A stretch of DNA of 63,788 bases, filler included, from Hausera hauseri (taxonomy: Eukaryota), in assembly GCA_046269625.1 (NCBI GenBank). It is 11 parts of 11 records of this genome, joined end to end, with 100 filler letters (N's around TTAATTAATTAA, not from the genome) between each part and the next. Parts side by side here need not be neighbours in the genome. Positions count along the whole stretch, not along the records: positions 7,400 to 12,998 come from JBJURY010223410.1; 10 more parts are not named here. One strand, given 5' to 3'. Below the pieces are notes generated by a model, which was not told where the DNA came from, made no database searches, and was given only the letters and a program-made list of their open reading frames with translations. Below, in pieces: positions 292 to 49,646 of the stretch. The position numbers and the translations under genes were made by a program. The number at the start of each line of letters is the position of its first letter. Position 1 is the first letter of the stretch.

Positions 292-2600
292 ATGATTGAT
301 ACGGGAGCCAATGTTTCTCTCGTAGGGAAGCATGCAATACCAGCTGAATTTCTGACACAAATAAAATTAGCTTCAAAAGAATGCATTGGGATTATAACAG
401 CTTTCCATCAATGTACTGAACCATATGGATATTGTAAACGTGAACCCTTGGTCTGCGGAAAAAAGATGAAAGTGACTTTGGATGTGATGACAACTTTAGA
501 TCCTATACGCATTTTAGAAATGAATGTACTACGAAAACTCAGTATTCCATATAAACCTGCAATTAGGATCGATCTGTCCTAAAAACTAGGATATTCCCGT
601 TGATTGTGACAAATCAGACATTTGGATTCATGGTATATTTTTTGTCGATATCGACAATAGTAGTGCGTCTTGTTAATTCAAGATTTATTACATGTATTTT
701 TGTATGATTACCATGGCGGTTGTTGTGTTCAGAAAACGTGTCGATATTATGAGTAAGGTGATACCGATAATATTACCCAATTTGAGGTGAAATAGGTAAT
801 TCTTAAATTCCTGACTATCCGTATCCTGTTTGAGGGTCAACGATGCAACTTTCGGTTCTACCATTTCAGGCTAGAACAATATTTCTGGATGACAATATAG
901 TTGAATTTATACCAAGAATATTTCAAAATGAACTCATGATCTCATTATTGTGTTTATGCAACCGGAGGAACCATTTCCATTAAAGTTTTAAGTTCGTCCA
1001 TTAAATATTCACAAAAATGAAAATAGGTCAAAAATAGTAAAATACTGATCATGAGGAATATGATGTCTAAATTGTAGCAATCACCAGTGATGTAGAAGAG
1101 AAACCAGAAGACACACTTTATGTAAAGCGACGAAAAACTTATCAGTTGAATATGTAGAATATTTTTCGGATCTTGTCTTCGAATATATTGAAATATTTGC
1201 CAAAAGCGAGACAGACATAGGACGTACCGACTTATTCGAGTTTAAATTATCATTTATGACAGATCCTTAGACAAAAAGAAATCGATTTATTACAGCAACT
1301 GATACCCAAATGGTATCCGCCACCTAAAGCACTTCAAAAGGAAATCGAATTATAAATACAAACAATGTTACATAAGAGTATCATTGAAATCTGTCGATCG
1401 CCGTGGCCATCTCCTATTGTTCCGACGAAGAAAGGCAATACCACAAAGCATCGTCCGGGCGTAAATTACGTCACGTTAAACAAAAATTTGACAAATAACG
1501 CTTATCCAATACCACGAATACGAGATATCATTGATGAATTAAACGATTGCAAATAGTTCACTACATTAGATCTGCAAAGCGAATTCTGGCAATTTCCAGT
1601 AGCCGAAAAAGACCATTGGAAGGCAGCACGGAGATGTTTGTCAGTTTACACGCATGCAATTCCAAGAGTTTATCCCATTGGTTTTAAAAGCAGCACTCGG
1701 TCTATAGTATATAAACGATATTTTAATTGCATCAAAAACATGGTCAGCACACTTGATTGAATTACAAGAAGTATTCGACCGAATCAGAGTTTCAAAATTG
1801 AAACTGAACCCGAAAAACTACGAATGCTGTAAAACTGAAGTTAGATATTTTGTATTTTTAGCCTCCATCCAGATTTATGGAATATTGGAATATTCTCCAC
1901 CAACCAGTGAGCATGAAATGAGAGCTGGGTTAGGATTAGAATCATTTTACGCTGCGTTTATAGAAAATTTCACAGAAATCAACTAGCCGCAGTATAAATT
2001 ATTAAAAAAGGACCAGAAATGGGAATGAACTGAAAGAAGCTTTTGATGAACTTAAACGACATTTGGTATCTACACCTATATTGAGTTACCCAGATATTTC
2101 ACTCCAGTTTATTTTAAAGACAAACGCTAGAATCAAAGCCATTGGCAAAATTTTAGCCCAACAGAGTCCTAAAGAAACAACGAACACGTATTTGCACATG
2201 GAGAACAAAGTTTAAGTAACGCTTAAAGGAAATATTCTACTATAGAATTAGAATTACTAGCAATTCTTGATGGACTACGACATTACGAATATTATGTTTA
2301 TGGTCAAAAATTATAATGTTTAATGATTGCAAGGTATTACTCGCGTCACGAACGGACAATAGACATGTATCAAGCCGACTCTAAAGATGAAAGTTAGACC
2401 TTTTGAATTACGATATCGAATACCGATACAAGCTCGGAAAAGATAATACGGATGCACACGAAATTTCTAGGATACCTTATGATAAAATAGTAGTTGCAGC
2501 TTATAAATCACAAGACAAAGAAAAATAAAAAGTATTGAATGAAAAAGTTATGGAACGAGAAATCTGATGATTATGGACATATACGCAGACAAGTCGAAAA
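292..2600 (+). mobile_element. Heavily degenerate Ty3/gypsy pol (protease, RT, RNase H)
   Basis: MIDTGANVS aspartic-protease motif at 292. RT N-terminal SPWPSPIV...NAYPIPRI at 1365-1556 and LKLNPKN...VRY at 1753-1986. RNase H-like YSTIELELLAI at ~2230-2260. Many stops and frameshifts. Confidence 0.85.
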
Positions 2601-3809
2601 GCCTTCGTCGTTCTCTGCCTGCATAGAAATCATCGAGGTGGTTCACGCATATGGAATATGGATAATGCTCAGGCAGTCCGCTGAGGTGTCGCACGAAGCG
2701 GCTACGTTGCAGCAACTCACGCACCGTTCGGTAATCCGAATAAGATCGATGCGGGGTTTGACGATCCTGGACAAGGTGTTATCTTCTGTTGACGTTGGCA
2801 TTTTGCTGGTTTGCCCATTGGCCGTCCCAGCGGCGGATTCTCTTACTACAGCATGGTTCTCCATCTGTATCGTGTATCCAGCTTTGGGTGTTCGATGTAT
2901 CTTTGGAATTAGATACCCCGGAATGGTATGGTCGTTGTATCTGACGATTGCTTCACCAATTCAGGCCCTCGCTGGAGGAGACGAAAGCTTCGCTACCTTG
3001 TCTCTGTAACTCGGGTGATTGGTTCATCGGGCCGATGTCCTACGTTTCCTACAATCGGTTGCTCCTTTTGAGCTACTGCTGTTTTTCGTAAGCTTTTTTG
3101 AGGCATTGTGGATTGAGTTTTGTGATTGATTTCCCTTCTTGTTTGATTGATTGTTTTTTCTCGTTTTTTCCTTTTTTGCTAATTGAACGAATTTGATTTT
3201 TTGATTGTAGACTCCATTTGCTGTTCAACTCTTGATTATTTATATAGTAAGCGCGTTACATAATAGTCAAGAGTTGTCGCGTAATTTAACATTTACTAGC
3301 TGGTAGCTAGTAACTGTGTGAGATTTTGCGCGTTTGAAGTACCCTAGTTGCAATTTTATGCATTTATAATTGTTGTCGGGTATTCTTTTAGTGTTACGTA
3401 ATGAAGTAACTTTAATTTTTGTTGTTGGGCAATTGGTAATGCCCTAGATGCTTTTTATGAAAAGCGGCAAAGCCGGATAATTCGTATAGATTAACGTGGG
3501 TGCAATTTCCACTTGCTTTATGTATATGGACGGTATGACTTTTTGTAGAGTCATCGGAAATTTTCACGAAAAAGTTTAAAATTTGATTTTAACTTTACGA
3601 AGAAATGAGATTTGTTGGTACATTTTGGTATTTGAATCCATTAATTATAAGTAAATCTACTAAATTATTCGATAATAATTGTGTTTATCGGGCATACTAA
3701 TAGATTTAGAATTTTAGTACAAAAACAGAGATGTTTAATTTTTAATCGTTTTGTGGAATTTCCTTATTTGTAACAAACTGTTGTAATTTGTAAGGTGGAA
3801 CCTTACTGT

Positions 3810-7399: not shown

Positions 7400-7823
7400 C
7401 CTGCCTGCGCTGTTATCTGGAGCTAATCGCCGCGCAATAAAAAGTAACGCAATATTCCATGGGCTCACATACGCGTTTGATAGTAGGAGTGTGTCACACG
7501 CAAGAATATGCCACATTAAGTGGCATTTATTGCTATAATTGCAAAATGGCTCATTGTAATTGGCAACAGTTTTTCTGGCGATTATTTCCACACAATACAA
7601 TTTTACCCCCGTAAACACGGTATTGTGTCCACACATACGGATGAAATACACACAGAAAACAAATAATAAAACATATTCAGATAGCCTGTTTGTAAAATAC
7701 AGAAATATTTGAAATATGTGTAATTTGATTGGATTTTTTGATTTAATGAGGTCTTACTTTTCAGGCTGCTCCTCAGCGAGGGCCATAATGTCACTAAAAC
7801 TCTGTTGAACCCATTCGAATCAA

Positions 7824-8156
7824 TGAAAGACCTGCAACACAAACACAAGTCACACACTGAACGCTTTAAGAAAAAGAACCAGAACCCTGCAGCAGGCCTA
7901 CCTGTGATCTCGACCCCTTTCTCGTAGGAACCCGGGTATCCGGCGCTGGCCATCACCACGGTAACTGCAGAGCTGCCCTGCTGCCACACGGGGGCGCTGG
8001 AGGCCAGGTTCCCACTTACGGTGTTCATGATGACGTCATAGAGGTCGCTCTGCATCAGGGGAAGCAGAACCTTGCATTCTGGGTCGCCAAAGCGACAGTT
8101 GAACTCCAGAACCTTTGGGCCCTGATTGGTCAACATGAGGCCTGCGTACAGAACAC
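7824..8156 (-). pseudogene. GART: Isolated fragment of GART (GARS domain): 255-nt exon 8156-7902, 70-nt intron 7901-7832, and the first codons (GLS) of the next exon; vertebrate/teleost-like
   Basis: GVLYAGLMLTNQGPKVLEFNCRFGDPECKVLLPLMQSDLY...AVTVVMASAGYPGSYEKGVEITG. Bounded by a ttctttccAG acceptor and a G/GTAGG donor, with a downstream acceptor tgtgttgcAG/GTCTTTCA. Visibly GC-richer than its flanks. Confidence 0.9.
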
Positions 8157-8301
8157 CTGGAAAGAAAATAGTTTACTTTTCATTTCCATCTAAATAATAC
8201 AAATTCGTCTAAAAATAAGAAGGAAAAATACACAAAATAAAGAAGGTTGTATATACACTAATCAAATTATTATTGTTAATCACTAAGATCAGGTTATAAA
8301 G

Positions 8302-10584
8302 TCAAGCGTCCAAGTCCACTTCTTCGGGATCACTGTCGGTTATCGTTGCCCAATCATCGGTAATTCTGATGGTCCTCGTCTTCTTATCATCATTGTTTCC
8401 TAGGTACATTGTTTCTTCAGTCGAAGTAGTTGATCTCAAGCTGGCTTTCAGTCTTTCAAGAATTGTGGTTTGATCCTTTCGTTCCATTCTCGAACGTTCC
8501 TTCCTTTCTGGCTCCAGTATCTCTTTCGTTTTTCCGAAGAGATGTTCGTACTCATCTTCTTTCATCCAGTCATATATGGAATTTTGTATATTCTCCTGAA
8601 TCGTAGCTTTGATAGGCACCCACATAGTTTTCCCGCTTCTTCTTACAAGAAGAGCTGACAACATATAAGCGCTGCTTTTCACATGAATATCGACAATTGT
8701 CCGACTCGAACTAAGCATTATGCAGCGTTTTTCTACATCCGTCTCATGGTTAACTTCTATTCTTAACATGAGTATTTTCTGAGCATCCCGATAGGGTACC
8801 AGGAAAAATTTAGTCCCTTCTGGTTGGTAATACTGGGCTGCTAGCATCTCGTTTCCTGCTGATTCCCAGTCCAATATCTGTTTTTGTCTAATCCCTTGTT
8901 GTATAGTGGCAGTTTTCTCAGGGATAAATTCGTCAATTACGACTGGTATTGTTATCCCATTGAGGAGTGATATTCGTAAGATTCCATTTACTTGTATTTT
9001 CCTTCTTTTTGGGTCCATCATTGCCATGATCAATTGACGCATAAGTTCATTCGTTTCTAAACTTTCGGTTTGAGTCGATATTTGAACTTGCGTTGTCGAG
9101 TCACACTTTCTTTTCAATATTTTCTTTTCTTCGCTTTCCTTTAAATCATCTGTCTCCCCTTCTGATATTTCGCAATTAGGTTCATCGAATTCATCTGGCT
9201 CGATCTTATCTTTTGTTGGAATTTTCTTAATTTCTTTTCCTTTTACTAGAGTGGCCTGGACATCAAATTGCCATTTCATTGTACCAATATATTCCGGTTT
9301 CCGATTCATTAAATCTCCATAATCAAGTATGTTTCCTTGGGAGTCAGTAGGAGTCCATTCATATTAATCGGTAGTTTTCTTGTGAGATTCTATAGTTAAC
9401 TGGAGTCTTCCTTTCGTAGTACTCAAAAATTGTGGAAATTTCAGCATCACTATTATTTGACATAGTTTTCTCTACATTCTTCATGGGGTCCACAACTGCG
9501 CAAGCTCTATTAATCAGTATGCAAAGCACATTAAACGTCTTGTGCGCTTCTAACGCCGCAATTTTGTATCCCAATATAAATTTTGTAACTTCAGCCCTAA
9601 GTTTGGGTGCATCCATTCCGGTTTGAATTTGATTTCAATCTATTCTGTGTCGGTTCCTGTTCAAGTTATGTATTGCTCTTCTTGGGGATATTATTTCGGA
9701 AAAGATAATGTCACCATTTGATTCCGCAATGATGATTTCAATGGGTAATGGAATCTGAGTTCCATTTGATCGTTTTCCATATGCGAAGGAAGTCGCTAGG
9801 TATCTGATGCTCTTAGCTCTGTCAGTTAATAAGATATTGCCTCCTCTTCTTAATTCTTCTTCATTTGGTTCACTTTTAAATTTTATTAGCTCTGGCATTG
9901 AGTATACTCTTTCTGCAACATAAAACTCAATAAAGCCAGTGGTTACATTTCTCTTGATACAGTTGTGATTCCTTTTGGGTCTACTGCATAGTTAATCTGT
10001 AACGATTCCTGATGGTCAATTTTCTCTATTCGATTTTCATTGCCATCTAATTTTTTAAAACTTATCTGACCTCTGCCTAATGCTATGTGAGCTGTTATTC
10101 CTTTATTCTCGTTCATCCATTGTGTGAGAGGGAGGATAGCATCAAAGTGGTATAATTTAAACGGCAGTAGACATCTGTTCCTCGTTTCACCATATTTGAA
10201 GTAATTTGGGAGTTTTGAGACTTCGTCAATAAATTGATTATCCTGATCGAGATGCGTGATTATTTTGTCGTAAAATGTGTACGACATAGTTTGGCGAATT
10301 ACGGAAAGTTTCCTATTTCCTTCTTTGTCATCTGTTTCTTTGTTTGTTCCGCTTCTTTGTCCAGAATCCTGAGTGCTTCCCGTTTAGGGAGCGTTTGCGA
10401 TAACTCGCCTGGAGCTTGAGTTTCCTGTTTCAGGAGCGTTGATTCCTTTTTTTGATGCATTCAGGCTTCCCATTTCGGGAGCATTGTTCTGGTTTCTTAA
10501 TTTCAGGCTTCCCATTTTGGGAGCATAGTTCTGTCTTCGTGGCAAGCTTCCCATTTCGGGAGCATTACTCTGATTTTGTGGCAT
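8302..10584 (-). pseudogene. Retroelement 3' accessory ORF (~760 aa when rejoined): NAPEMGS repeats, DEDDh exonuclease-like domain (~9830-9530), unknown C-terminal domain
   Basis: ORF pieces 10584-10384, 10287-9943, 9898-9635, 9616-9359 and 9309-8302 join through in-frame stops and two frameshifts. IIFSEIISPRRAIHNLNRNRHRID*NQIQTGMDAPKLRAEVTKFILGYKIAA resembles the REX4/ISG20-type DEDDh core. Confidence 0.6.
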
Positions 10585-10599
10585 TTTGTCAGCGATTAA

Positions 10600-12263
10600 A
10601 CTAAAAAATTGTTGAATTATATCTAATTTATATCTTTTCGTGTTAACACACAAGTTAAATTTGATTCGTTCTCTTATTTGATTGGACTTAATATTCTTAC
10701 AAAAATAATTCAAAACGATTGGTCCACCAATCATAAGGATTATATACCAATATGTTGCTAAAATTTCGTATGAGTTGTCTTTACTCAACCCGATTAATAA
10801 GAGAGGTATAAAACAGAATGTGGTTTGTGTATGTTCTTCTCCTCTCTGAATTTCATTAAGAATCAGTGGTATGTCCTTTGTGATATTCAGTGGTTCAATA
10901 TTGTTTAACTCCACTGTCTTATAATTTCGATTGCTTCGTATTATTTCGTAGTAATGAGATTCATTACTTCTCTTTCTTTTACATTTCATTTTATGACTGT
11001 ATTTTGCTACGATTAGACATATTGTACCGATTCCTAATACTACTGCAATTATCCACCAATATTTGAGTAAATACGATTCTGTAATGTCCGGTAAAGTTGT
11101 AGTTATTTTCATTCTTTCATCTTCGTTATATCTTATGTGTTGGTATTGATTTGCTAAGGGTGACGTTTTTATCGTCACTAATTTTGAATTATCTTTCGTG
11201 TATATTTTGATGAACTCATTTGTATCCGGTGTTAGGCCTTTACAAAAATTGCGTTTATTTTTGGAAAACTGAATCTCGACTTTCTCGTGAATACTTGTAC
11301 ATTTTATCCAACTTTTCTCATTTATTTCGTGAGAAATTATTATCTCGATTCTATTTGTATAAGGTTTAAATTTAAATTTAATTGGAAAATCCTTCATAAG
11401 TCTTCCTTTGAAAATATGCTTGTTTTTCTTCATTGTCTTCGTCACCGGTTTGATTACTTCTGCTACTGTTGTGGTTGCTTTGGTTACTTCTCTGGTTACT
11501 TTGGTTACTTCTATCTCTCCCCTACCCTTATGGGTGGTTTTAAGTGTAGAAATTGTAGGAGTATGTATAATATGTAAAATGGATTTCAATTGTGAACTTT
11601 TAATGAAGATAAAGATTGGTAACCGCGAGGAGTGTATTAGATTAGAAATATCTCCTTTGAAGTACATGTCAAAACGGATTATGCACCGAATATTGGTATG
11701 GAGAGCACAGCATACTCGAGGATGTGCACCATTGAGATGACAAAAATGTGGTTGAGGTACATGTCTGGGGTAAGCCTCATACCATATATTAAGCTCGTAT
11801 CCAAGAGGTAAAAGTTGCATAGTCCGGAAATTGAAACATTATTGTTTAAAAATTGTGCAGAGAACTCGTCATAAAGTAGCATATCTGATTTTGGTTTGTC
11901 TATGATATCCATGATATCCTGAAGGGGAACATGAACATTAATGTTCGGTTTCCATTGGATGATATATCCGTCAAGATCCAGAGATTTCAATAATACATAA
12001 TAAGTATAAGAAGTGTCGTAATCTAGGTGGCAACAAGTCTGAAGATGTTTTTCCGGGATAGTGCAACTAGTAGTTGTTTTATCTGAGGAGGTGAATACCA
12101 ACTTCACTTCATGGCGTGAATATACCGGTACGTGTGTTCTAAAGCAAATGCTGGGTTTGCTTCTATCAACGTGAAAAATGGTTGTGTATATAACCAATTC
12201 AGTAAAGTTGTAGGAAGCAGCTGCAAGTTGTGAGAAAAACGTCAATAAAATAAAGAATACCAT
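10600..12263 (-). CDS. Integrase-fused signal-peptide/membrane protein with FN3-like segments, a Thr-rich stalk and TM helices (frame change near 11680-11820)
   Basis: MVFFILLTFFSQLAAA signal-like peptide, in frame with integrase. FN3-like strand motifs HLDYDTSYTYYV and KGLTPDTNEFIKIY...VTIKTSP. EVTKVTREVTKATTT repeat. TM YWWIIAVVLGIGTICLIVA followed by KMKCKRKR. Confidence 0.55.
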
Positions 12264-12419
12264 GCCAAAGTATCTACCCGATATGAGGTGAACTCGGCAA
12301 CTCATAGATTCAAAGTTATCTATGTTTTGCCTCTGAGATAGAGCCGCTATCTTTGGTTCTACTTTATCTGATGATTCTAACTCTACCTGTCTTATGAAAT
12401 CATTGTATGACGTGGATGC

Positions 12420-12998
12420 TTTCGTGACTCTTTGTACGGACACAGCTTCATATTTGTTTGGTCCTTTTTGGATGAAAATAGTTTGTGGGCGTACATCTAC
12501 GACTTTGTATGGCCCTTGTCCTGTACGTGTCAATTTCAAGGATTTTCCTTTCTTTACCGCGGGGTAGTGTACCATTACATAATCACCAATTTTATAGGTG
12601 TGAGGACGCGCCTTTTTATTATACTGTTTCTTGTATCCAGCTTTATATTTTTGCTCAAATTCTTTGGATTCCTTTTGGAAATATTCAAGCCTCTTTAATA
12701 AGTCGTGATATTGTTCTTCCATATGGTCACTTGTCTTCAAGGAAGATGGCAACAACTCTGTATCCAAAGGTAACAGTGGTAATCGTCCGAACATTAAATC
12801 AAATTGTGAATGATTAGTACTCTTCGTAGGTGTAGTATTTATGGCAAATGCAGTCGTTTTTAAATGTTGATGCCAGTCTTTTTGGTCATGAGCAACTTTG
12901 GTAGACAGAATACCTTGAATTGTTCGATTCATCCGTTCGACCATACCATTACATTGTGGATGGTAGGATGTAGTTAGCAAATGTTTGCATTGAAATAT
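12420..12998 (-). mobile_element. Ty3/gypsy integrase, C-terminal half
   Basis: TTSYHPQCNGMVERMNRT, FDLMFGR and the GPY/F module KL...GQGPYKV. Confidence 0.95.
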
Positions 12999-13098: not shown

Positions 13099-14460
13099 TT
13101 GTTTAAGTCGACTGGAAAACGTGCAACTGTAGACGTAGTTTCGGGCTTTGTTACCGAACCTATTATGGTAAATGCAAACGATGTCGGCTTTTTGAAAGGC
13201 TGATGCATAGAATTTGCACCCCAAGCAACATTTGCTGGATTTGTTTTGAATTTATTGTGATAATAGCACACCATAGGTCGAGTAGGGGACCTGGCAGATT
13301 TAGAATTTTGCGATGAGGCACGGCTGTGATTAGGTGTGAATCGATTTCATCGCGGCATAGATAAATTGACCAGTTTGGAAGTTAGAGCAGGAATGTCTTG
13401 GTGTATTGCCGTATTTTCAGCTCAAAGACCGTTTATTTGACTATTCAACGCTAAGATTTCAGCATTGGGTGGTGTTATATGCGGTTGTAATGCGGCTGCG
13501 ACGATAGGAGTATAGTGTGTAATTAGTATATCGTAACTTTTATCAGCCAGTTGTGCTAACTTTTCTAACGTGTCAGTATCTTCAAGTACTGTTAGTAAAG
13601 CGCGTATTTCTTTCGGTAATGATTGAAGGAAATATCTGCGCAATAAGTCGGCATTGTTAATCTGGTTTACCCCTAACTTGCTTAATTGGGTCAAGGATGT
13701 TTGTAAGAATTCTGTAGGTTTCTGGTTTCTTATTGAATTATCATTGAAGTATTTTTGGATGATATTATCCAAAGAAGGCTTAGTTAGTTTTAGGACGGCG
13801 TTAAATAGAGTTTCATATAGGTTTACAGTATGGAAGATTTCGGAAAGATTTGGGAGCAGTGATTTGGTACTGGATGGCAAGAGTATTAATAGACTATTTG
13901 CTTTGAGGAAAGGGTCAATAATGCTATATGATTTTAACCACTGTACATGAAACTCTAACCATGTACGACTGGAATGTTGTGTGTCGGTAAAATAATCAAC
14001 GCAAAGGAAATTGACCGCAGGGGATGTTGCAGGTAGGACTAAAGGAGACTGCTTTAACGGAACATGTATGATGGGAATGTCAATAAAATCTTGTTGGTCC
14101 TAAGAAGATGCTTTTGGGTTAGATCCGCCTAGTAAACAGTATTTGGCAGTTAGTATAGATGTAAAAGATTGGCGGGTATAGCTGGTGATAATATCGGATT
14201 GCTGCAAAAAGAATCCATTAAAGCTGAGACAGAAATTAGTCTGTAATGGTTCTCGTTGTAGAGCACCGAACAAATGTGCGATGGTTGCTATTTGATGTAT
14301 ATAGTATGTGTATGTGCGCTTATTTCCAAGTGAGTTAAAAAAATGAAGTTTTCAGATATGTCGGGTGTGCAAACATGTTTATTTTGGAAGAGAAGAGAAA
14401 TAGAGATGAAAGTGTATCATTTCAGGGGTACAGTGCGTCACCGGGGACACGGTCGCACCC
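13099..14460 (-). mobile_element. Gypsy family A gag region (degenerate)
   Basis: KPTEFL...LLRRYFLQSLPKEIRALL...LEKLAQLADK and a CYYHNKF..N.ANVAWG Cys/His box. Homologous to 33200-34200. Confidence 0.8.
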
Positions 14461-28227: not shown

Positions 28228-29760
28228 TGATTTAACTTGGTTAATTATACTTCTCGTAATTTTGTGCCGAGGAGCTTTTGATTGTGATTATTCCACTGTC
28301 GGAGCATTGTATTCTCTCGTATACCTAGAAAAACATCCGTATGCGGAACAGGATAAGTTTGTTTTTGAAGAAACTAAAAAGTATAGATTATACCAAGAGA
28401 ATCTGTTTATTAGAGTTAAGGCACTTCAATGTAAACTGACTAAACAAATTAAAAAATAGTACTGTGGAAAAGTACATCGACATTCAACACATTTTAATGG
28501 CTATACCTAACGAACCAAAAGAACTAACAACGGATCAGTGTCCAGAAGCTGTGAAGATGGGGAAATTAAAAATAAATAATACAGTCGAAATAGGAGCAGC
28601 CGTAAACGCTATTATATATCACACTATCAACGAAGAAGGTTACACTGAAAGTAATGGAAATTGTTCAGAAAATACAGTTGATGGTGTACAAGCGCCGTAT
28701 ACACTAACTATTATTGAAAAATATATTTCATTTGTTGTAATAAAATATTTAATTATTACAACTGACTGTAAATATGGTACAGAATACTGTAGAACCACTG
28801 ATTCTATTATCGCCTGGACTGCACCTACAGTGGAATGTAATTTGGCATTTCTAAAGAAAATCAGTTTTAATGTAGCTAAAGAAATACGACTTAGTACACC
28901 ATTTGCACGGCGAATTGCCGGAAACGAAGACGAAGAAAAATAGAATCAAATAGAAACACCAACAATTATGATTTCGTCGGAAGTTGAAGATTCAATAAGA
29001 TTCATTCAAAAAGAAAAAGTAAAAAAATGTGGAGTAGAAAACGTTTATGCCACTAATATGGAGAATATATATTACATAAACGGAAATAAGTAATGCTTTA
29101 AAAGCGGTTTATCCTACAGAAGTTAGACCAATGAATTATTACAATGGAAAAATGGATTATTTATTTCATTATATGGTAAACAACCAATAACAAATCTATA
29201 AAAATATGATCCAAAACAATTGCCTACTGGCTGAAGATTTACTAGCATTAAAAGTGGCCGTAGATGATATAAATCCAGTTATAGATACCCTGATACTTCC
29301 AACTAAAGTAAAAGGTATGTTTAGACGGGTATCAGGAGAAGCTATTATAACATTCAGATGTACAGAGGTAGTAGTAGATTTAGTGGATATGAAAGTACGT
29401 AACAACGAAAAAACAGTACAGTATAAAGGTGAAACAAGATACGTGGCCCCGATTACTAGAGTTATGCTGCAAAAATGTGAAGAATCTAGTAAAGTGAGAA
29501 ATTGTTATGAGGAAATTGCTCCCTTATACAAAATAAATAAGGACGACTGGGTAGCTTTACCCGCACGAAATAAAGCTGTAACACCAAAAAAGCTCAATAT
29601 GTTTTCCTTAAAAAGGGACTTGGTTTTTGACACTTATAAAATGTTTTACATTGAGGCATATACGATGTTCAAACTGTGGAGAAATTGAGGCATTATTTGT
29701 TATTTCCTAAACAAATTCAAAGATTAATAATTTTTTATACTCAGAAGGTTACCGATACGT
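28228..29760 (+). pseudogene. Class III fusion glycoprotein (chuvirus-G / herpes gB-like retroelement env) relic
   Basis: Signal-like WLIILLVILCRG then AFDC. Further motifs: ALQCKL, NGNC, CKYGTEYC..IIAW..EC, CGVENVYATN, NNCLL..NP..GMFRRVSGEAIITFRC, YKGETRYVAPITR and C...IAPLYKIN..W. Contains stops and frameshifts. Confidence 0.8.
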
Positions 29761-44048: not shown

Positions 44049-45126
44049 AGATGTCATGATGACGACTCAATTAATCCATGGTATTTGGTCACGAGATTTG
44101 GTTAAACAATTAATTTTGGCTAGATCTGAAAACTTTGAAGGAATTCTACAGTTAGCTCAAGATTTAGAAATGACACTCGACAGATATGTCAGACACAACG
44201 ATAGAAACGACAAAAATAATGATCGAAGTGATCGTAACGACAGAAATCGAAATGACAATTGTGGAAGAAAAGATAGGCGATTTACGGGTAACAAAAATTA
44301 TGGGAACCGAAATAATAGCAGTTACAGAAATGGCCGAAGTAATAATTATACTAATACGAACAGATCAGATTTTAACTGGGATAGGACTAGAGGAAATTAT
44401 AAAGGCTCGAACTACTCGAATCAAAACGGCGATAACCGAAATAATGATAATCGACGGAATGCAGACAACGCGCAAAGTTTGTCAAATCAGTATAATAAAA
44501 GTATGAATAGATCTAAGTCACCTGTGAACGAAGACGGTCGACAAAGAGTCGGCAGAAATGGGAATTTAGTCTGTTTTACTTGCGGCAATGAAAGACATAT
44601 ATCAAGATCATGTTCAAACCCACGTAGCGTTTCATTTACCGCGCCAAATAAGATCAGTATGATTAGGATTAATGAAAATTTAGAAACAAAGTATGGTGTT
44701 CGCGGTGATACAGGCACTATAATTAATATACAAGATTTGCGGAAGTTTCTAGATACTCAGACTGAATCCAATAATCCACAAATTTTGATGGCCAGAAAAC
44801 AATACAGAAATAAACTAAGATTACTAGATGTATATCATGGTTTAGCAGAACCGAAAACTGATTACGAACATGCGATAGCACCTAAGCGAATTGACATGAC
44901 ACGAAAAAAGAGTGTTCCGACAAGTAATAAACCATCTGATAAACCAGGCACAACGACAGAAGTCGACTTAGATGCAGCGCCTGAGTTTACGGTTGAAAAA
45001 GTAACTAAGTCTACTGATGACGATACAGCAGAAAAAGAGTTTAAGGAGCCATTAATACTTAAAATTATGAAAAATAGAGGCCGTAGCCCTTCCTTAAAAA
45101 CGAAACGTAGAAGTCGTTCACGCTGA
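44049..45126 (+). mobile_element. Retroelement gag C-terminus (Asn/Arg-rich, CCHC knuckle) with a possible vestigial protease motif
   Basis: QLIHGI...LVKQL...FEGILQLAQDLE (end of capsid), CFTCGNERHISRSC at 44572-44613, and RGDTGTIINI with DTG at 44707-44715. Confidence 0.8.
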
Positions 45127-48100
45127 CAAGTAACTAGAGAGAAAATAGAAGAAACGAAAAATAGGTACACCATTGTAGACAGTGACGTAGAACATAGCAT
45201 AAATACACCACAAATTGATCCATTCACACCTATCGAGGTAAAAGAATCTACAGTGTCAATTAAGGAAATTAACGAAATTTGCCCACTTCCCACTAGTTAG
45301 GAAGAAACGTTAAATGTTGATGATTTTGATCCAAGGAAGTGGAAAGTCCGACGTTAGTGAAAAAACGCCGATGAGTTGAAGAAAATGAGAATTAGATGCT
45401 AGGACCCAGAAATATTACAACGTAACTTGGAAAGGCTTAAGCAAATTAACAAACAAATAGATATATCCGGAAAAAAGCAACAGTTTCCTGAGAGGTTATC
45501 TAAAAGGTTAAAATTATGCAGTGAAGAAAGGCTCAATGAAGCAATCGACTTAGGACAACCTGAGGAGGTATCACCTGAAACGTTATTAAAATGGAAGCAT
45601 GAATTAGACTTATGGATTAAAAGTGGAGTCGAATTTTCGGAAGGATGGAGCAAAAACAATGATAGTGTTGATGTGAAAGTCACTAAGGCTCAGACGCTAC
45701 TGTCTACCTTAGAAACAAACCCAAAACTAAAGAGAGTAGTCCGTAATTTAGAGCGTATGATGGATAAAATTCTCTGGGCAATGATTAATCGGCTTAGAGA
45801 AAAACCGGCTAGCAATCGAAGTAATATCAATTTAAAAATATTGGGTATAGATCCAGTAGATATTCCTCTCTTAATGGAGATGATAAAAATCGCTTTCGCT
45901 GTACCTAAACAATACACGAACCTAGCGAATCGAATCAAAATGGAAAATGAAAAGAGAACACAAATTTATAGTTTGAGAAACCGAATTATGTCTCCAAATA
46001 ACGAAGAAACCAAATACGTAGTAAAAGCTTGTATCATAGAATTTGGTGAATATAAGGATGAATTTAGTTGTCAGCCGGATTATAAATTTTATAAAAGGTC
46101 TAGATGATAAATTGAAGGATGCATATAAGATGCTAGACAAAGCTATATTGGCAAAGCCAATAATCGCTAATCAAGTGTCGGAATGGTCCGGATTAATAAT
46201 GAGGCTAAGAAAATTAGTAGAAGACCGTAAGAAAGAATTTCCAGAAAGCGAACCATCTATAAACAGGCAACTAGAAGAAAATGCACGTGATTTAGATACA
46301 ATACAAGCAGAAATAGACATCCGTACGCAATTCGAAGCTTTACGACGACTAAATTTTATGAAGAAGAAGCAAGAAACGACAATAGTGGAACAGATTTATA
46401 AAATGATCGAAGAAACCAACTTTACAACAAAGCAGAATATGACTTGCGCTTACTGTCCAAGATTAAGAAACATCCAACTAGAAGGAGTCCAACATTTAAC
46501 AGATAAACCTATCGACGAGATTTCAATCCAGGATATCAAAACCCTAGACATTTGTCAAAAACATAGAGCAGCTTTAGCGCCAGCAATAAAATTCTTGCTT
46601 AAACCACAAGAATGGATGGCCGGAACAGATCAAAACTGCCATACCGAGTTAACAAAAATAAGAAACAACCAACATCTTAGTTTCGAGGAATCTAAGTTCG
46701 TAAAGAAATTGCTGGATGCAATGAATGCCGACTCAAAAGTCATAAATGAGATGTATGAGTTAGCCTTCCTATTAGTAGAAATGGCAGAGATTAATGATGA
46801 GAAGATGAGACAACTGATGCCTAAAATAAAACAGATTGAAGAAACGTGCATCAAAACCACACAAAGAGCAACTAGGTTAGACGAATTAGTAAAAGAGCTC
46901 GGAATCTACCGGAACAAGTATGCTTTTACCGAATCAGAAATCAAAAAAGAGCGAGAATTTGTACAAAGATGGCAAATAGATGTAATTATTGAACTAACTG
47001 ATTATCACCAAAGGGGATTCATCAATTCTAATGAATTAGGCGAATTACTGAAAATGATTCAATATGCCTGTGGAAACGGAATAGGTTTCCGAATAACGCA
47101 GATGAAAGAAATGCAACCAAGATTGAAAAAAATTCGAGAAAATGTGCAAAGAACGAATACAGCCTTAGTAGACTATGGACTTCCAGATGTTGGAAATGAA
47201 CAGGAATGGGATGCGTATTTAGATGCCATAACGGCCGAAAATCCCGTCACTCCAGTACAACTAAATGCAATAGAAACGTGTCCGCAGAACAGGAGATTCA
47301 ATGTGGAGATGCTCCTGGATTCAGCGCTAACTGAAAGAGATTTATTTGAACTAATTGACGTAAATATTACTGAAAGTAAGTGAAGACAACTTATTCCGAT
47401 CTTAACTAAATTATCGAGTAAAAATACAATTTATAGCACAATGCCGAAACTTTTGATAAGGAAATACGCTAAAATCTTGAGGGCTAAACTTGAGGTAACG
47501 ATGAAAGTAATGGTATCATCCGAGTGGATGGACGAAAAAGAATGTGAGTTAACTACATATTCCTATGCAATGGACGTAAGAGAATGGTTATTAAATAATG
47601 GCGGAACAAATGAGCTAAATTATAGATTTTACTTTAGAGGTAGAATACTCGACAATTTAGAACAATTAATAGATATAGGGATTATCCCCGACGAAACAAA
47701 TCGAATAGTAGTAATAATAGCCAATGAACAGACAAAAGAAGAAGCCACGCGTAAGGCCAAGACAGAACAATGCGTAGGACAAATCATGGGAGTCCGAGAT
47801 GCTGCAATGTATTTCTACTATTTACAAACGGATGATGGCAAGGAACAATAGGAAAAGAATTTAGTGCCGCTGAGTGAAATGATAGCCAATGTCCCAAGAC
47901 AGAAACGCCCAGTCGGTAGGCCTAAGAAGACACGAGAAGTAGTTTATTACAATGGAGAATTGATTAGAGAGTTGAGACAAATGTCGATTCCTACTTTCTG
48001 CACAGAGTATGAAGAATTAAACAAATTAATGAAGAAATTAATACGTATTGTGAATTATTCAAGTCTTCGAGATGACACATTAGATGATAAAGAAAAAGCA

Positions 48101-48442
48101 ATATTCAATGTAGCTAGAATTATGAAAAGTTCCCGTTTTACACTATCAAAAAGTAACTTAACTGACGAATCGGTAATTGAAAAGATCATGATAGAAAACA
48201 CCACTGAAAAATTAAGGAAAGTATTACTATACTCAGCTATCAAAGTAAACTCTAATCCAGAGAATGAAATTAATAGAGCTACAAGCTCAGCACGAAGAGC
48301 GGCGAGAAAGCTACCCTGCGAAGTAAATTGGTCGAGACTATTTGATAAAGAAGAAGACAAACGACCCAGAAATACCAATAGGCTTAAAGATGTGCTACGT
48401 AATTTGGTAACAACTGATAATAATAACCGGAAAAACGAATAA
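45127..48442 (+). pseudogene. ~1100-aa unknown region continuing the gag frame: helical/coiled-coil region, ubiquitin-like domain (~47486-47720), AT-hook (47903-47929)
   Basis: ORFs 44056 and 45427 share one frame. ORFs 46043, 47441, 47864 and 48632 share a second frame, implying one frameshift near 46050. YRFYFRGRILDNLEQLIDIGI resembles the ubiquitin motif [29 protein letters not shown] is an AT-hook. Confidence 0.6.
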
Positions 48443-49646
48443 AATTGGCTAATCAGCTTACTTACCTTGATGATGCTAATAAAGCACATAGGTGCTGTTA
48501 CCATCTACGACTGCAATAAGTTTAAACGACGGCAGAAATATTCCCTAATGGATTTGGAAGTGTGCGAAGATGCCAGGCCGCACAAGTTATAAACGAGAGA
48601 GAAAAACTATTTTCTGTACCAACAACAAGAATTGATAGCATTAGATGGATTGGAATGTATGATGAGACGATCTCGAAGCATTTTTCACTGTGGATTAATA
48701 CATGGATATTCTTCAATAATCAAACCAACAACTCCTCCAATTCCGATGAACTTAGAACGCCAGCACTGCAAACAGGCTAAGGAGATCGGAAGAGTACAGT
48801 GGGACTGTATGGAATTAGAAATGCAACCAGGAAAGATAATTAGCATATAAGATAGTGGTCTGAACGTTAGACATGCATAATGGACATTGTAACGGAGCGG
48901 AATACGACACGGGAAAAGGATTACAAACAAAAGTAGTGGTCGTGGATTTCTATGAATCAGAGATGCGAGCACAAAAAGTAATGTTCCATAGTGTCACTAA
49001 ACTATATATCGAGGATCAAAAATGACATTTACAAGACGGAACCTGTGCTTTCAGAAGTTCTGTTATAATATGGGAACCTCCCTCTGGAAGAAGCTGCAAT
49101 TTTATCAAAATTAAGGAATTAAAGTTTAATGAAACTACCGGAAAGCGATATGTGGGTAAATCTGGCAACAACTCAAGGACACGCGAAGACATATCAGAAC
49201 ATCCTACACCACTATATTAATATCTGATCAGCATGGACTAAAATTTATTATGAAAGAAATGATTTCTCGATGTTAAGTAGTGATGTTCGCTACTAACTAT
49301 GGAGAGTTTTTTGTCGCAGAAACAAAAATAAATGCAAGGACTTACAAACTAGAAACGCAGGTTATCCGAATTGAGGATTGTCTGAAAAACAGAGACGATT
49401 ATTTCTGTTACAAGGGACAAGTCGGAATAACCGAGTTATATCACAAAATGATAACACATGATTGTAAATTAGATATGGAGATCATAAGAACAAAACTGGC
49501 TCTTATTTACGCTAATCCCGAGTTAGCATTCACAATAATTCCTATGAGAGAAGGAATTTTTGGTCGAGTTATCTGTGAAGTACTATTAATTTACCAATGT
49601 GAGAAAAGAGATGTATCCATCAACGTTGAAGAAAAACGCTGCATGC
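48443..49646 (+). pseudogene. Class III fusion glycoprotein (chuvirus-G / gB-like env) relic, in frame with the upstream polyprotein and cut by the contig end
   Basis: NWLISLLTLMMLIKHIGA signal-like stretch then VTIYDCN..YSLMDLEVC. Further motifs: LECMMRRSRSIFHCG, HCKQAKEIG, NGHC, and HDCKL..NPEL..EGIFGRVICEVLLIYQCEKRDV..C. Aligns with 28228-29760. Confidence 0.8.

Follow-up and report, generated by a model that had tools for sequence, protein, structure and literature searches.

In the Env-carrying Ty3/gypsy errantiviruses a third gene behind pol encodes an F-type or HSV/gB-type protein with a signal peptide, an ectodomain and an anchor (PMC13524379). The env position can also hold an accessory gene other than a canonical fusogen: the LTR retrotransposons of bdelloid rotifers have non-env ORF3 types that encode GDSL, DEDDy and small transmembrane (TM) proteins (PMC5408684). 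In the MDG1 group, the FAST-like sORF2 is a non-Env membrane protein of 63–107 aa, with an ectodomain of about 30 residues, a myristoylation motif and a basic run after its TM segment (PMC11952523). Atlas virus, a BEL/Pao element, encodes Gag-Pol-Env with phlebovirus-like GN/GC, the membrane gene being in frame with Pol and the FN3-like domain III being part of a class II fusogen (PMC9094657). The giant planarian Gypsy elements Burro and GYPSM1 combine tandem repeats with many accessory coding regions, whose listed domains are MATH, BIR, BCL2-like, ankyrin and SUMO-like, and have env between gag and pol (PMC6431247). Our comparison covers part of each of these articles. The word ‘fibronectin’ has no occurrence in the main texts of PMC13524379 (nor has ‘immunoglobulin’), PMC11952523, PMC5408684 and PMC6431247. 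A signal peptide, FN3 domain(s) and an anchor occur together in cellular surface proteins such as contactin, NCAM, Robo, LAR and the cytokine receptors, and also in the cestode EG95 family (PMC2671473), which is likened here by description only.

The DNA analysed here (the window) is a stretch of 63,788 nucleotides, filler included, consisting of 11 joined parts of the Hausera hauseri genome (GenBank assembly GCA_046269625.1). On one of these parts a many-copy element carries a putative FN3 membrane-protein gene where its relatives carry env. As in the errantiviruses, this is a third gene behind pol with a predicted signal peptide, ectodomain and anchor; unlike their Env, the protein appears to consist of three small beta-sandwiches and a Thr-rich spacer, with no furin site and no PF24664 match. 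It resembles the bdelloid ORF3 types as a gene in the env position that is no canonical fusogen, but would encode a multi-domain, receptor-like protein and is followed by further ORFs. With sORF2 it has in common that an element encodes a non-Env membrane protein with a basic run after the TM segment, whereas it differs in a predicted signal peptide and in the length of its ectodomain, about 380 residues. The position in frame with Pol and the putative FN3 topology recall Atlas virus, although nothing here points to a class II fusogen; the many accessory coding regions and tandem repeats recall Burro and GYPSM1. From the cellular FN3 proteins it differs in its low identity (5–18% in structural alignments), in the lack of a Pfam fn3 match, in its CC-containing repeats, and in being intronless and element-borne. 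No EG95 match surfaced in phmmer or word-based searches.

Non-env third genes are thus already known (PMC5408684, PMC6431247), and the tandem-FN3 type is apparently new among them: in the literature searched, which consisted of listings and the openings of abstracts outside supplements, Repbase and subscription journals, no tandem-FN3 membrane protein was described as an accessory gene of a retrotransposon. The finding rests on one broken copy, one intact relative and weak models. It bears on how LTR retrotransposons that have no fusogen move between cells, and on what non-env third genes do.

The element and its integrase

The part taken from JBJURY010223410.1 occupies positions 7400–12998 of the window. 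The gene lies on its minus strand, directly behind a Ty3/Gypsy-type integrase, of which the C-terminal half and a linker of about 50 residues are present at 12264–12998 (−), in frame with the predicted signal peptide. The contig edge at 12998 falls inside the integrase, leaving RT and the LTRs off the contig. In Pfam the integrase reaches rve_3 with E 0.0055, under the cut-off of that family. Its best solved relative in the PDB is Ty3 Gag-Pol (E 5e-14), and its top long matches are named K02A2.6-like (E 1e-34). The GPY motif is present, in keeping with a Gypsy-type DDE integrase that has a C-terminal GPY/F module. All 10 integrase matches examined carry the RT domain PF00078; they come from 477 candidates of 770–2195 aa, a size range that leaves shorter, RT-less proteins outside the search. 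Because RT and the LTRs are off the contig, the name LTR retrotransposon derives from the integrase, and on this basis the element is likely to be one. No long direct repeat involving 7400–12998 is found among the repeats listed, and the 5′ end of the element is off the contig.

Two public runs yielded 3444 (X1) and 329 (X2) contigs on 7400–12998, most of them under 95% alike. By identity, the X1 contigs divide into 462 at 99% or above, 736 at 95–99%, 1062 at 90–95% and 1184 under 90%. Contig cover spans the whole of 8200–12998, and the high cover of the element fades near 8200. Summed X1 depth is 733–3213 over 8522–12261 and under 1 over 7400–8147, depth here being distinct from copy number. 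No RNA data set was listed as containing the stretch, a result that has no bearing on expression. The initial annotation had described a retrotransposon-borne gene, and the location behind a Gypsy-type integrase in a many-copy element is in line with this. One X1 contig joins 12294 to 12424, which links the 5′ end of the gene to the integrase end in another copy. At 22 integrase-related loci (25–43% identity) we found no relative of the membrane gene, nor any match under E 0.1 to the accessory ORFs; 10 Pol proteins likewise contained no relative of the membrane gene.

Reading frames and the frame break

An exhaustive phmmer search of 1.84 billion representatives returned a sole match, P0001, an intact protein of 479 aa (E 5e-4, 27% identity) that is a singleton on one 4939-base ENA contig. 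Neither this search nor the word-based ones located a donor gene or close host relative; among the latter, ORF B (see below) had no match in 4295 candidates and a second search found only P0001 itself among 3340. Viral contigs gave no relative of the membrane gene with P0001, an alignment or the 353-aa ORF as queries; the same holds for metagenome contigs (a second alignment as query), prokaryote genomes (P0001 as query) and PDB sequence searches.

In this copy the gene is divided between two frames. ORF A stays open from the integrase on through the start of a hydrophobic leader at 12263 and continues to 11679. ORF B (11838–10384, 484 aa) lies in the −1 frame and overlaps the end of ORF A. 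The annotation had put the frame change near 11680–11820. We place the break instead at about 11839–11870 (−), for two reasons: the match of ORF B to P0001 starts at residue 1 of ORF B, and variants in the overlap (11838–11682) favour frame B. The tblastn pieces are 12176–11925 in one frame and 11844–11161 in another. Contig cover dips at 11835–11859, and long pieces either stop at 11832 or have their start at 11849, leaving overhangs that do not align. The N-terminal part of ORF A is 33% identical to P0001 residues 79–163 over 85 residues (E 3e-11), and ORF B is 22% identical over 228 residues (E 2e-10). Since the intact P0001 matches both halves domain by domain, both frames belong to one gene; the frame change does not separate off unrelated non-coding sequence. 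The comparison thus supports the view that the two frames encode one putative type I membrane protein.

We consider it highly probable that intact copies make one continuous protein. No indel bridging the break appears among the variant rows shown (40 of 873 in one table and 40 of 222 in the other), so that continuity in other copies is argued from P0001 and from the switch of frame in the variants. A canonical slippery heptamer is present at 11850–11844 (−), in phase with ORF A and right at the break; a stop follows in the −1 frame at 11841–11839, two codons past it. The string RLTPDMYL in ORF A was considered as a repeat motif and rejected, as it falls in the frame that is not conserved.

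ORF B extends to 10384, beyond the end at 10600 given in the annotation. The stops at 10386, 9635 and 9364 are sites at which most other copies differ, which indicates that this copy has decayed at several places and that the C-terminus proper may be situated past 10384. ORF B ends, with its stop codon, in tandem in-frame repeats of 39–42 bases at 10384–10583 (−), found by TRF with periods of 39 and 42, about 3 copies and scores of 134–138. Each repeat has a small hairpin, and the array may be either an RNA signal or a repeat at the peptide level; the region folds only slightly better as RNA than its shuffles (z −1.70, 10 of 200).

Domain organisation

Reading from the N-terminus, the predicted protein has a leader, repeat 1, repeat 2, a Thr-rich spacer, repeat 3, a TM segment, a basic run and a tail with Tyr motifs. 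Repeat 1 (11925–12191, −, in ORF A) has four Cys including a CC pair. Repeat 2 (11602–11838, −, in ORF B) also has a CC pair, and repeat 3 (11158–11391, −) is nearest the membrane. All motifs quoted in the annotation are present on the minus strand, including HLDYDTSYTYYV at 12029–11994 in ORF A, GLTPDTNEFIKIY at 11238–11200 and VTIKTSP at 11178–11158. These had been read as marking two FN3 segments. Both sites stand, but the count does not, since a third repeat lies between them, from ORF B residue 1 through 60 and on (11838 to about 11600). Similarly, the Thr/Val/Lys-rich stretch described as a stalk exists (11428–11562, −) but lies between repeats 2 and 3 and not next to the membrane. It has 13 Thr in 45 residues, and P0001 has a Thr run at the same place. 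Its length varies among copies, with in-frame indels of 3, 12 and 9 bases.

Each window repeat aligns best with its own counterpart in P0001, with scores of 124, 90 and 94 for repeats 1–3 that none of 1000 shuffles reached in each case. Within P0001, repeats 1 and 2 are alike (score 76, 0 of 1000 shuffles). The window repeats show no significant match to each other, the scores being reached by 102, 231 and 620 of 1000 shuffles. P0001 has an extra helix after the leader, ends about 30 residues past its TM segment and is without a second hydrophobic stretch.

Assignments of the signal peptide and TM segments rest on hydropathy (19-residue peaks) and on helices in the AF2 models. A predicted signal peptide (12213–12263, −) begins at the Met at 12263 and has a moderate peak of 1.85; P0001 has a hydrophobic helix at residues 16–29. 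The predicted TM helix 1 (11005–11061, −; peak 2.33) aligns with the TM segment of P0001 and is the best-predicted part of the ORF B model, with pLDDT around 70. It is followed at 10912–11004 (−) by a basic stop-transfer run and a tail with Tyr-x-x-hydrophobic motifs. The signal peptide, the TM helix with its basic run, and the Tyr motifs (SHYYEI at 10959 and NYKTV at 10926) therefore all stand as annotated, the first two as predictions. The Tyr-x-x-hydrophobic motifs are at ORF B residues 296, 297 and 306, and P0001 has one at 475, short motifs of this kind arising easily by chance; a basic run and such motifs are common to both tails.

A second hydrophobic stretch at 10705–10767 (−) is a possible TM segment, with a marginal peak of 1.67; it is absent from P0001 and outside the fold model. 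It had been annotated as a TM segment that echoes the first. The stretch is there, but the likeness is weak: the local score of 41 between the two is reached by 8 of 2000 shuffles, for a pair picked post hoc and with hydrophobic clustering uncontrolled. The ORF A tail, too, ends in a hydrophobic stretch (peak 2.0).

Predicted fold

The AF2 models were built on alignments of only 2–3 rows and are of low confidence. The model of ORF B residues 1–313 has a mean pLDDT of 39.5, and in it repeat 2 comprises five strands and repeat 3, at pLDDT around 45–50, seven. The P0001 model (mean pLDDT 49.6) has three all-beta domains, with local pLDDT of about 55–67 in repeat 1. As the annotation had proposed, the models were compared with known structures by Foldseek. 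All-beta sandwiches were predicted in both proteins, if at low confidence. The P0001 model gave 45 PDB matches at E ≤ 0.001, lambda gpJ first and then fibronectin, contactin and cytokine receptors; the matches listed are mostly tandem-FN3 proteins. In contrast, the window ORF B model had no match at E ≤ 0.001, and the rows listed, from E 0.04, are again mostly tandem FN3 proteins. Phage tail and FN3 proteins make up most of the viral structures listed as matches to the P0001 model.

Compared with FN3 domains individually (VIA), P0001 repeat 1 reached Z 8.1–8.5 with rmsd of 2.1–3.0 Å over 77–87 residues, and window repeat 3 reached Z 6.5–7.1 with rmsd of 3.1–3.5 Å. The repeat 3 values tie with those for a glycoside-hydrolase domain (Z 7.2) and an archaeal pilin (6.9), and the best, 7.2, is within the background of 7–8. 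In the ESM Atlas a 433-aa arthropod cluster ranked first for both queries (0.82 and 0.88), and the named neighbours were mostly FN3 membrane proteins at 0.78–0.87, values below 0.9 being a lead only. Pfam fn3 matched neither ORF A nor ORF B, nor any of the three repeats taken singly, nor P0001.

Hallmarks of FN3 domains are the Leu-x-x-x-x-x-Tyr pattern of the E–F loop and the core Trp of strand B. The Leu…Tyr pattern is present in window repeat 1 and in all three P0001 repeats; the Tyr is replaced by Phe in window repeat 3 and by Cys in window repeat 2. Window repeat 1 has no Trp at the matching place. We consider an FN3-like fold quite probable, and with the same probability the protein would be a single-pass surface protein with three FN3-like domains.

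The annotation had also set the protein apart from fusogens, and we found no feature of the F, gB, class II or FAST types. The furin motif R-x-K/R-R is absent from ORF A, ORF B and P0001, in which the only R-x-x-R motifs come after the TM segment, and the window ectodomain model has no long helix. PF24664 (gB-type Env) does not match the gene, while three other ORFs of the window do. Behind the second hydrophobic stretch there are about 270 residues with 3 Cys in frames B and C, compared with the Cys-rich GC of about 500 residues. Size excludes an sORF2/FAST-like protein, ORF B alone having 484 aa and P0001 479 aa against 63–107 aa. Of the matches listed for the P0001 model, 50 to viral structures and the others to PDB entries, none is a fusogen, an absence that does not exclude a family. 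The three PF24664 matches (E 0.0008, 8.8e-13 and 1.9e-07) are broken gB-type (Monjiviricetes-like) glycoprotein remnants at 28440–29688 (+) and 49277–49646 (+), on two other contigs.

Variation among copies

The variant tables consist of the best-supported rows, 40 of 222 in one and 40 of 873 in the other. In the former, 15 of the 22 listed variant sites in 12267–11870 are at third positions of frame A (p 0.0009); adding the site at 11861, in the break zone, gives 15 of 23 (p 0.002). In the overlap (11838–11682) four of five sites are at third positions of frame B and none of the five at those of frame A, and in 11681–11560 the third-position count for frame B is 6 of 12 (p 0.18). The tail of ORF A is unconserved, with four of five variants at its second positions and a variable stop codon. 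The other table shows no excess, with 3 of 11 ORF B rows at third positions.

The six common indels listed for ORF B all have lengths divisible by three, as has the one in the last ORF; the two listed in non-coding DNA below 8302 do not. Three single-base indel rows fall in the integrase, each in single X2 contigs, and at a 2% share there are three frame-breaking indel rows in minor copies. From the third-position bias and the six frame-keeping indels it follows that the gene was likely under selection. If this is true, a receptor-like tandem-FN3 protein maintained by selection at the place of env would extend the types of accessory gene by a new one.

Possible roles

The annotation had named three roles for the protein: attachment, superinfection exclusion and immune modulation. 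Attachment is our best guess among them. We suggest, as a tentative assignment that falls a little short of an even chance, that the protein is an attachment protein which does not itself fuse membranes. The gene has the position of env, and FN3 arrays mounted on a spacer make a binding device. FN3 domains commonly serve cell-surface binding (PMC2671473, in the part covered), and MDG1 elements show that a retrotransposon and its capsids can pass between cells by means of a membrane protein that is not Env (PMC11952523, part covered). The signal peptide would direct the protein into the secretory route, whether it is made from a subgenomic RNA or released as part of the Pol polyprotein. The Thr-rich spacer could then lift the two outer, probably disulfide-bonded domains off the membrane to bind a surface partner, and the basic run and Tyr motifs might sort the protein to membrane sites where capsids gather. 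In this way the protein would attach a producing cell or particle to the cell next to it, and fusion, if needed, would be supplied from elsewhere, for example by the gB-type Env of other elements in the same genome. A bolder version, in which a Gypsy lineage replaced its fusogenic envelope with a tandem-FN3 adhesin that builds cell contacts for the passage of capsids, seems to us rather doubtful. If true, it would be an adhesin route of retrotransposon spread distinct from Env and from the FAST-like sORF2. A receptor-like protein of this kind, if under selection in the env position, would give a test of whether adhesion alone, or adhesion with a borrowed fusogen, supports spread.

The same fold could serve a decoy or signalling receptor that acts on the host, by binding a ligand or receptor there or by signalling through the Tyr motifs, and favours cells or animals with an active element. 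The structural neighbours include cytokine receptors, receptor kinases and phosphatases, and the long tail of the window protein has several Tyr motifs; moreover, domains linked with apoptosis and ubiquitination occur in the giant Gypsy elements of planarians (PMC6431247, in the part covered). These receptor-type matches tie with pure adhesion proteins, however, the long tail is missing from P0001, and the gene sits in the env position, so we regard this reading as unlikely, if less so than the remaining alternatives taken one by one. Receptor mimics occur in large DNA viruses, and a decoy receptor here would be their retrotransposon counterpart. Tyr-based endocytosis-type motifs could also pull a receptor inside, as superinfection exclusion would require if the protein occupied or removed the receptor of competing Env-bearing elements. 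The genome does have gB-type Env remnants, described above, but nothing here ties the FN3 protein to an Env receptor, and the known retroviral exclusion proteins derive from Env itself; we consider exclusion very improbable. An unrecognised fusogen, or the partner subunit of one in the manner of Gn and Gc, is no more probable; the second hydrophobic stretch would then act as the internal signal of a subunit that follows it. The env position and the two hydrophobic stretches would suit it, and the gene is in frame with Pol as in the Gag-Pol-Env belpaoviruses, whose Gc domain III has FN3 topology (PMC9094657, in the part covered). What follows the second stretch, though, is far from a Cys-rich, 500-residue Gc in its length of about 270 residues and its 3 Cys, P0001 ends about 30 residues past its TM segment, and the window protein has no fusion peptide, furin site or long ectodomain helix.

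Two further explanations concern the gene more than the role. The gene could be a functionless captured host gene or scrap, or the whole could be a DNA transposon of the Ginger type, whose integrase is Gypsy-like. In favour, the 3′ side of the element has a GART piece of foreign appearance (7828–8203, GC 0.52 against 0.34–0.38), RT is off the contig, and the RT search covered only proteins of at least 770 aa. This is improbable given the third-position bias and in-frame indels among copies, a GC content like that of the rest of the element, the lack of introns, the lack of a close host relative in 1.84 billion representatives, and a layout kept with P0001 at 22–33% identity. The least probable reading, barely below exclusion and the fusogen, is a programmed −1 frameshift at the heptamer 11850–11844 that would give a short and a long product. 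The heptamer is canonical, ORF B is in the −1 frame, neither read table lists an indel at the break, and ORF A ends in a hydrophobic stretch; yet the stop at 11841–11839 follows within two codons in that very frame, the ORF A tail is not conserved and its stop codon varies, P0001 is continuous, and contig alignments break off at the zone.

Neighbouring sequence

Downstream of the gene, and under the same high contig cover, the ORF list gives further accessory ORFs of the element on the minus strand at 9943–10383, 9635–9991, 9359–9634 and 8302–9363. The accessory ORFs over 8302–10383 have no Pfam match and only weak PHROG rows (E 0.035 and 0.079), and the largest has no PDB match under E 1. The 353-aa ORF combines a single hydrophobic stretch (1.64) with a C-terminus that is acidic.

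An exon of GART, together with its flanks, lies at 7828–8203 (−), adjoining the 3′ side of the element (Pfam GARS_A E 2e-12; human GART E 8e-33). It is almost uncovered in X1, but a 4759-base contig of X2 matches it over 376 bases, of which 13 differ. Because it is nearly uncovered in X1 yet matched in X2, the exon looks foreign to the host of the element, and the idea that it marks a host insertion site was dropped.

On another part of the window, 44050–48442 (+) begins with a Gag-like ORF with a CCHC knuckle (weak Pfam match, E 0.044). Behind it come about 3 kb of long ORFs of helical appearance, with no family match and no protease or RT in view; this is possibly an unusually long gag region of another element. 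Finally, one contig at 13420–17230 (−) has intron-free-looking pieces of host genes before a gag-like ORF, namely WD40-like, an RPA1 OB domain and a VPS13 VAB domain (E 1.7e-07).
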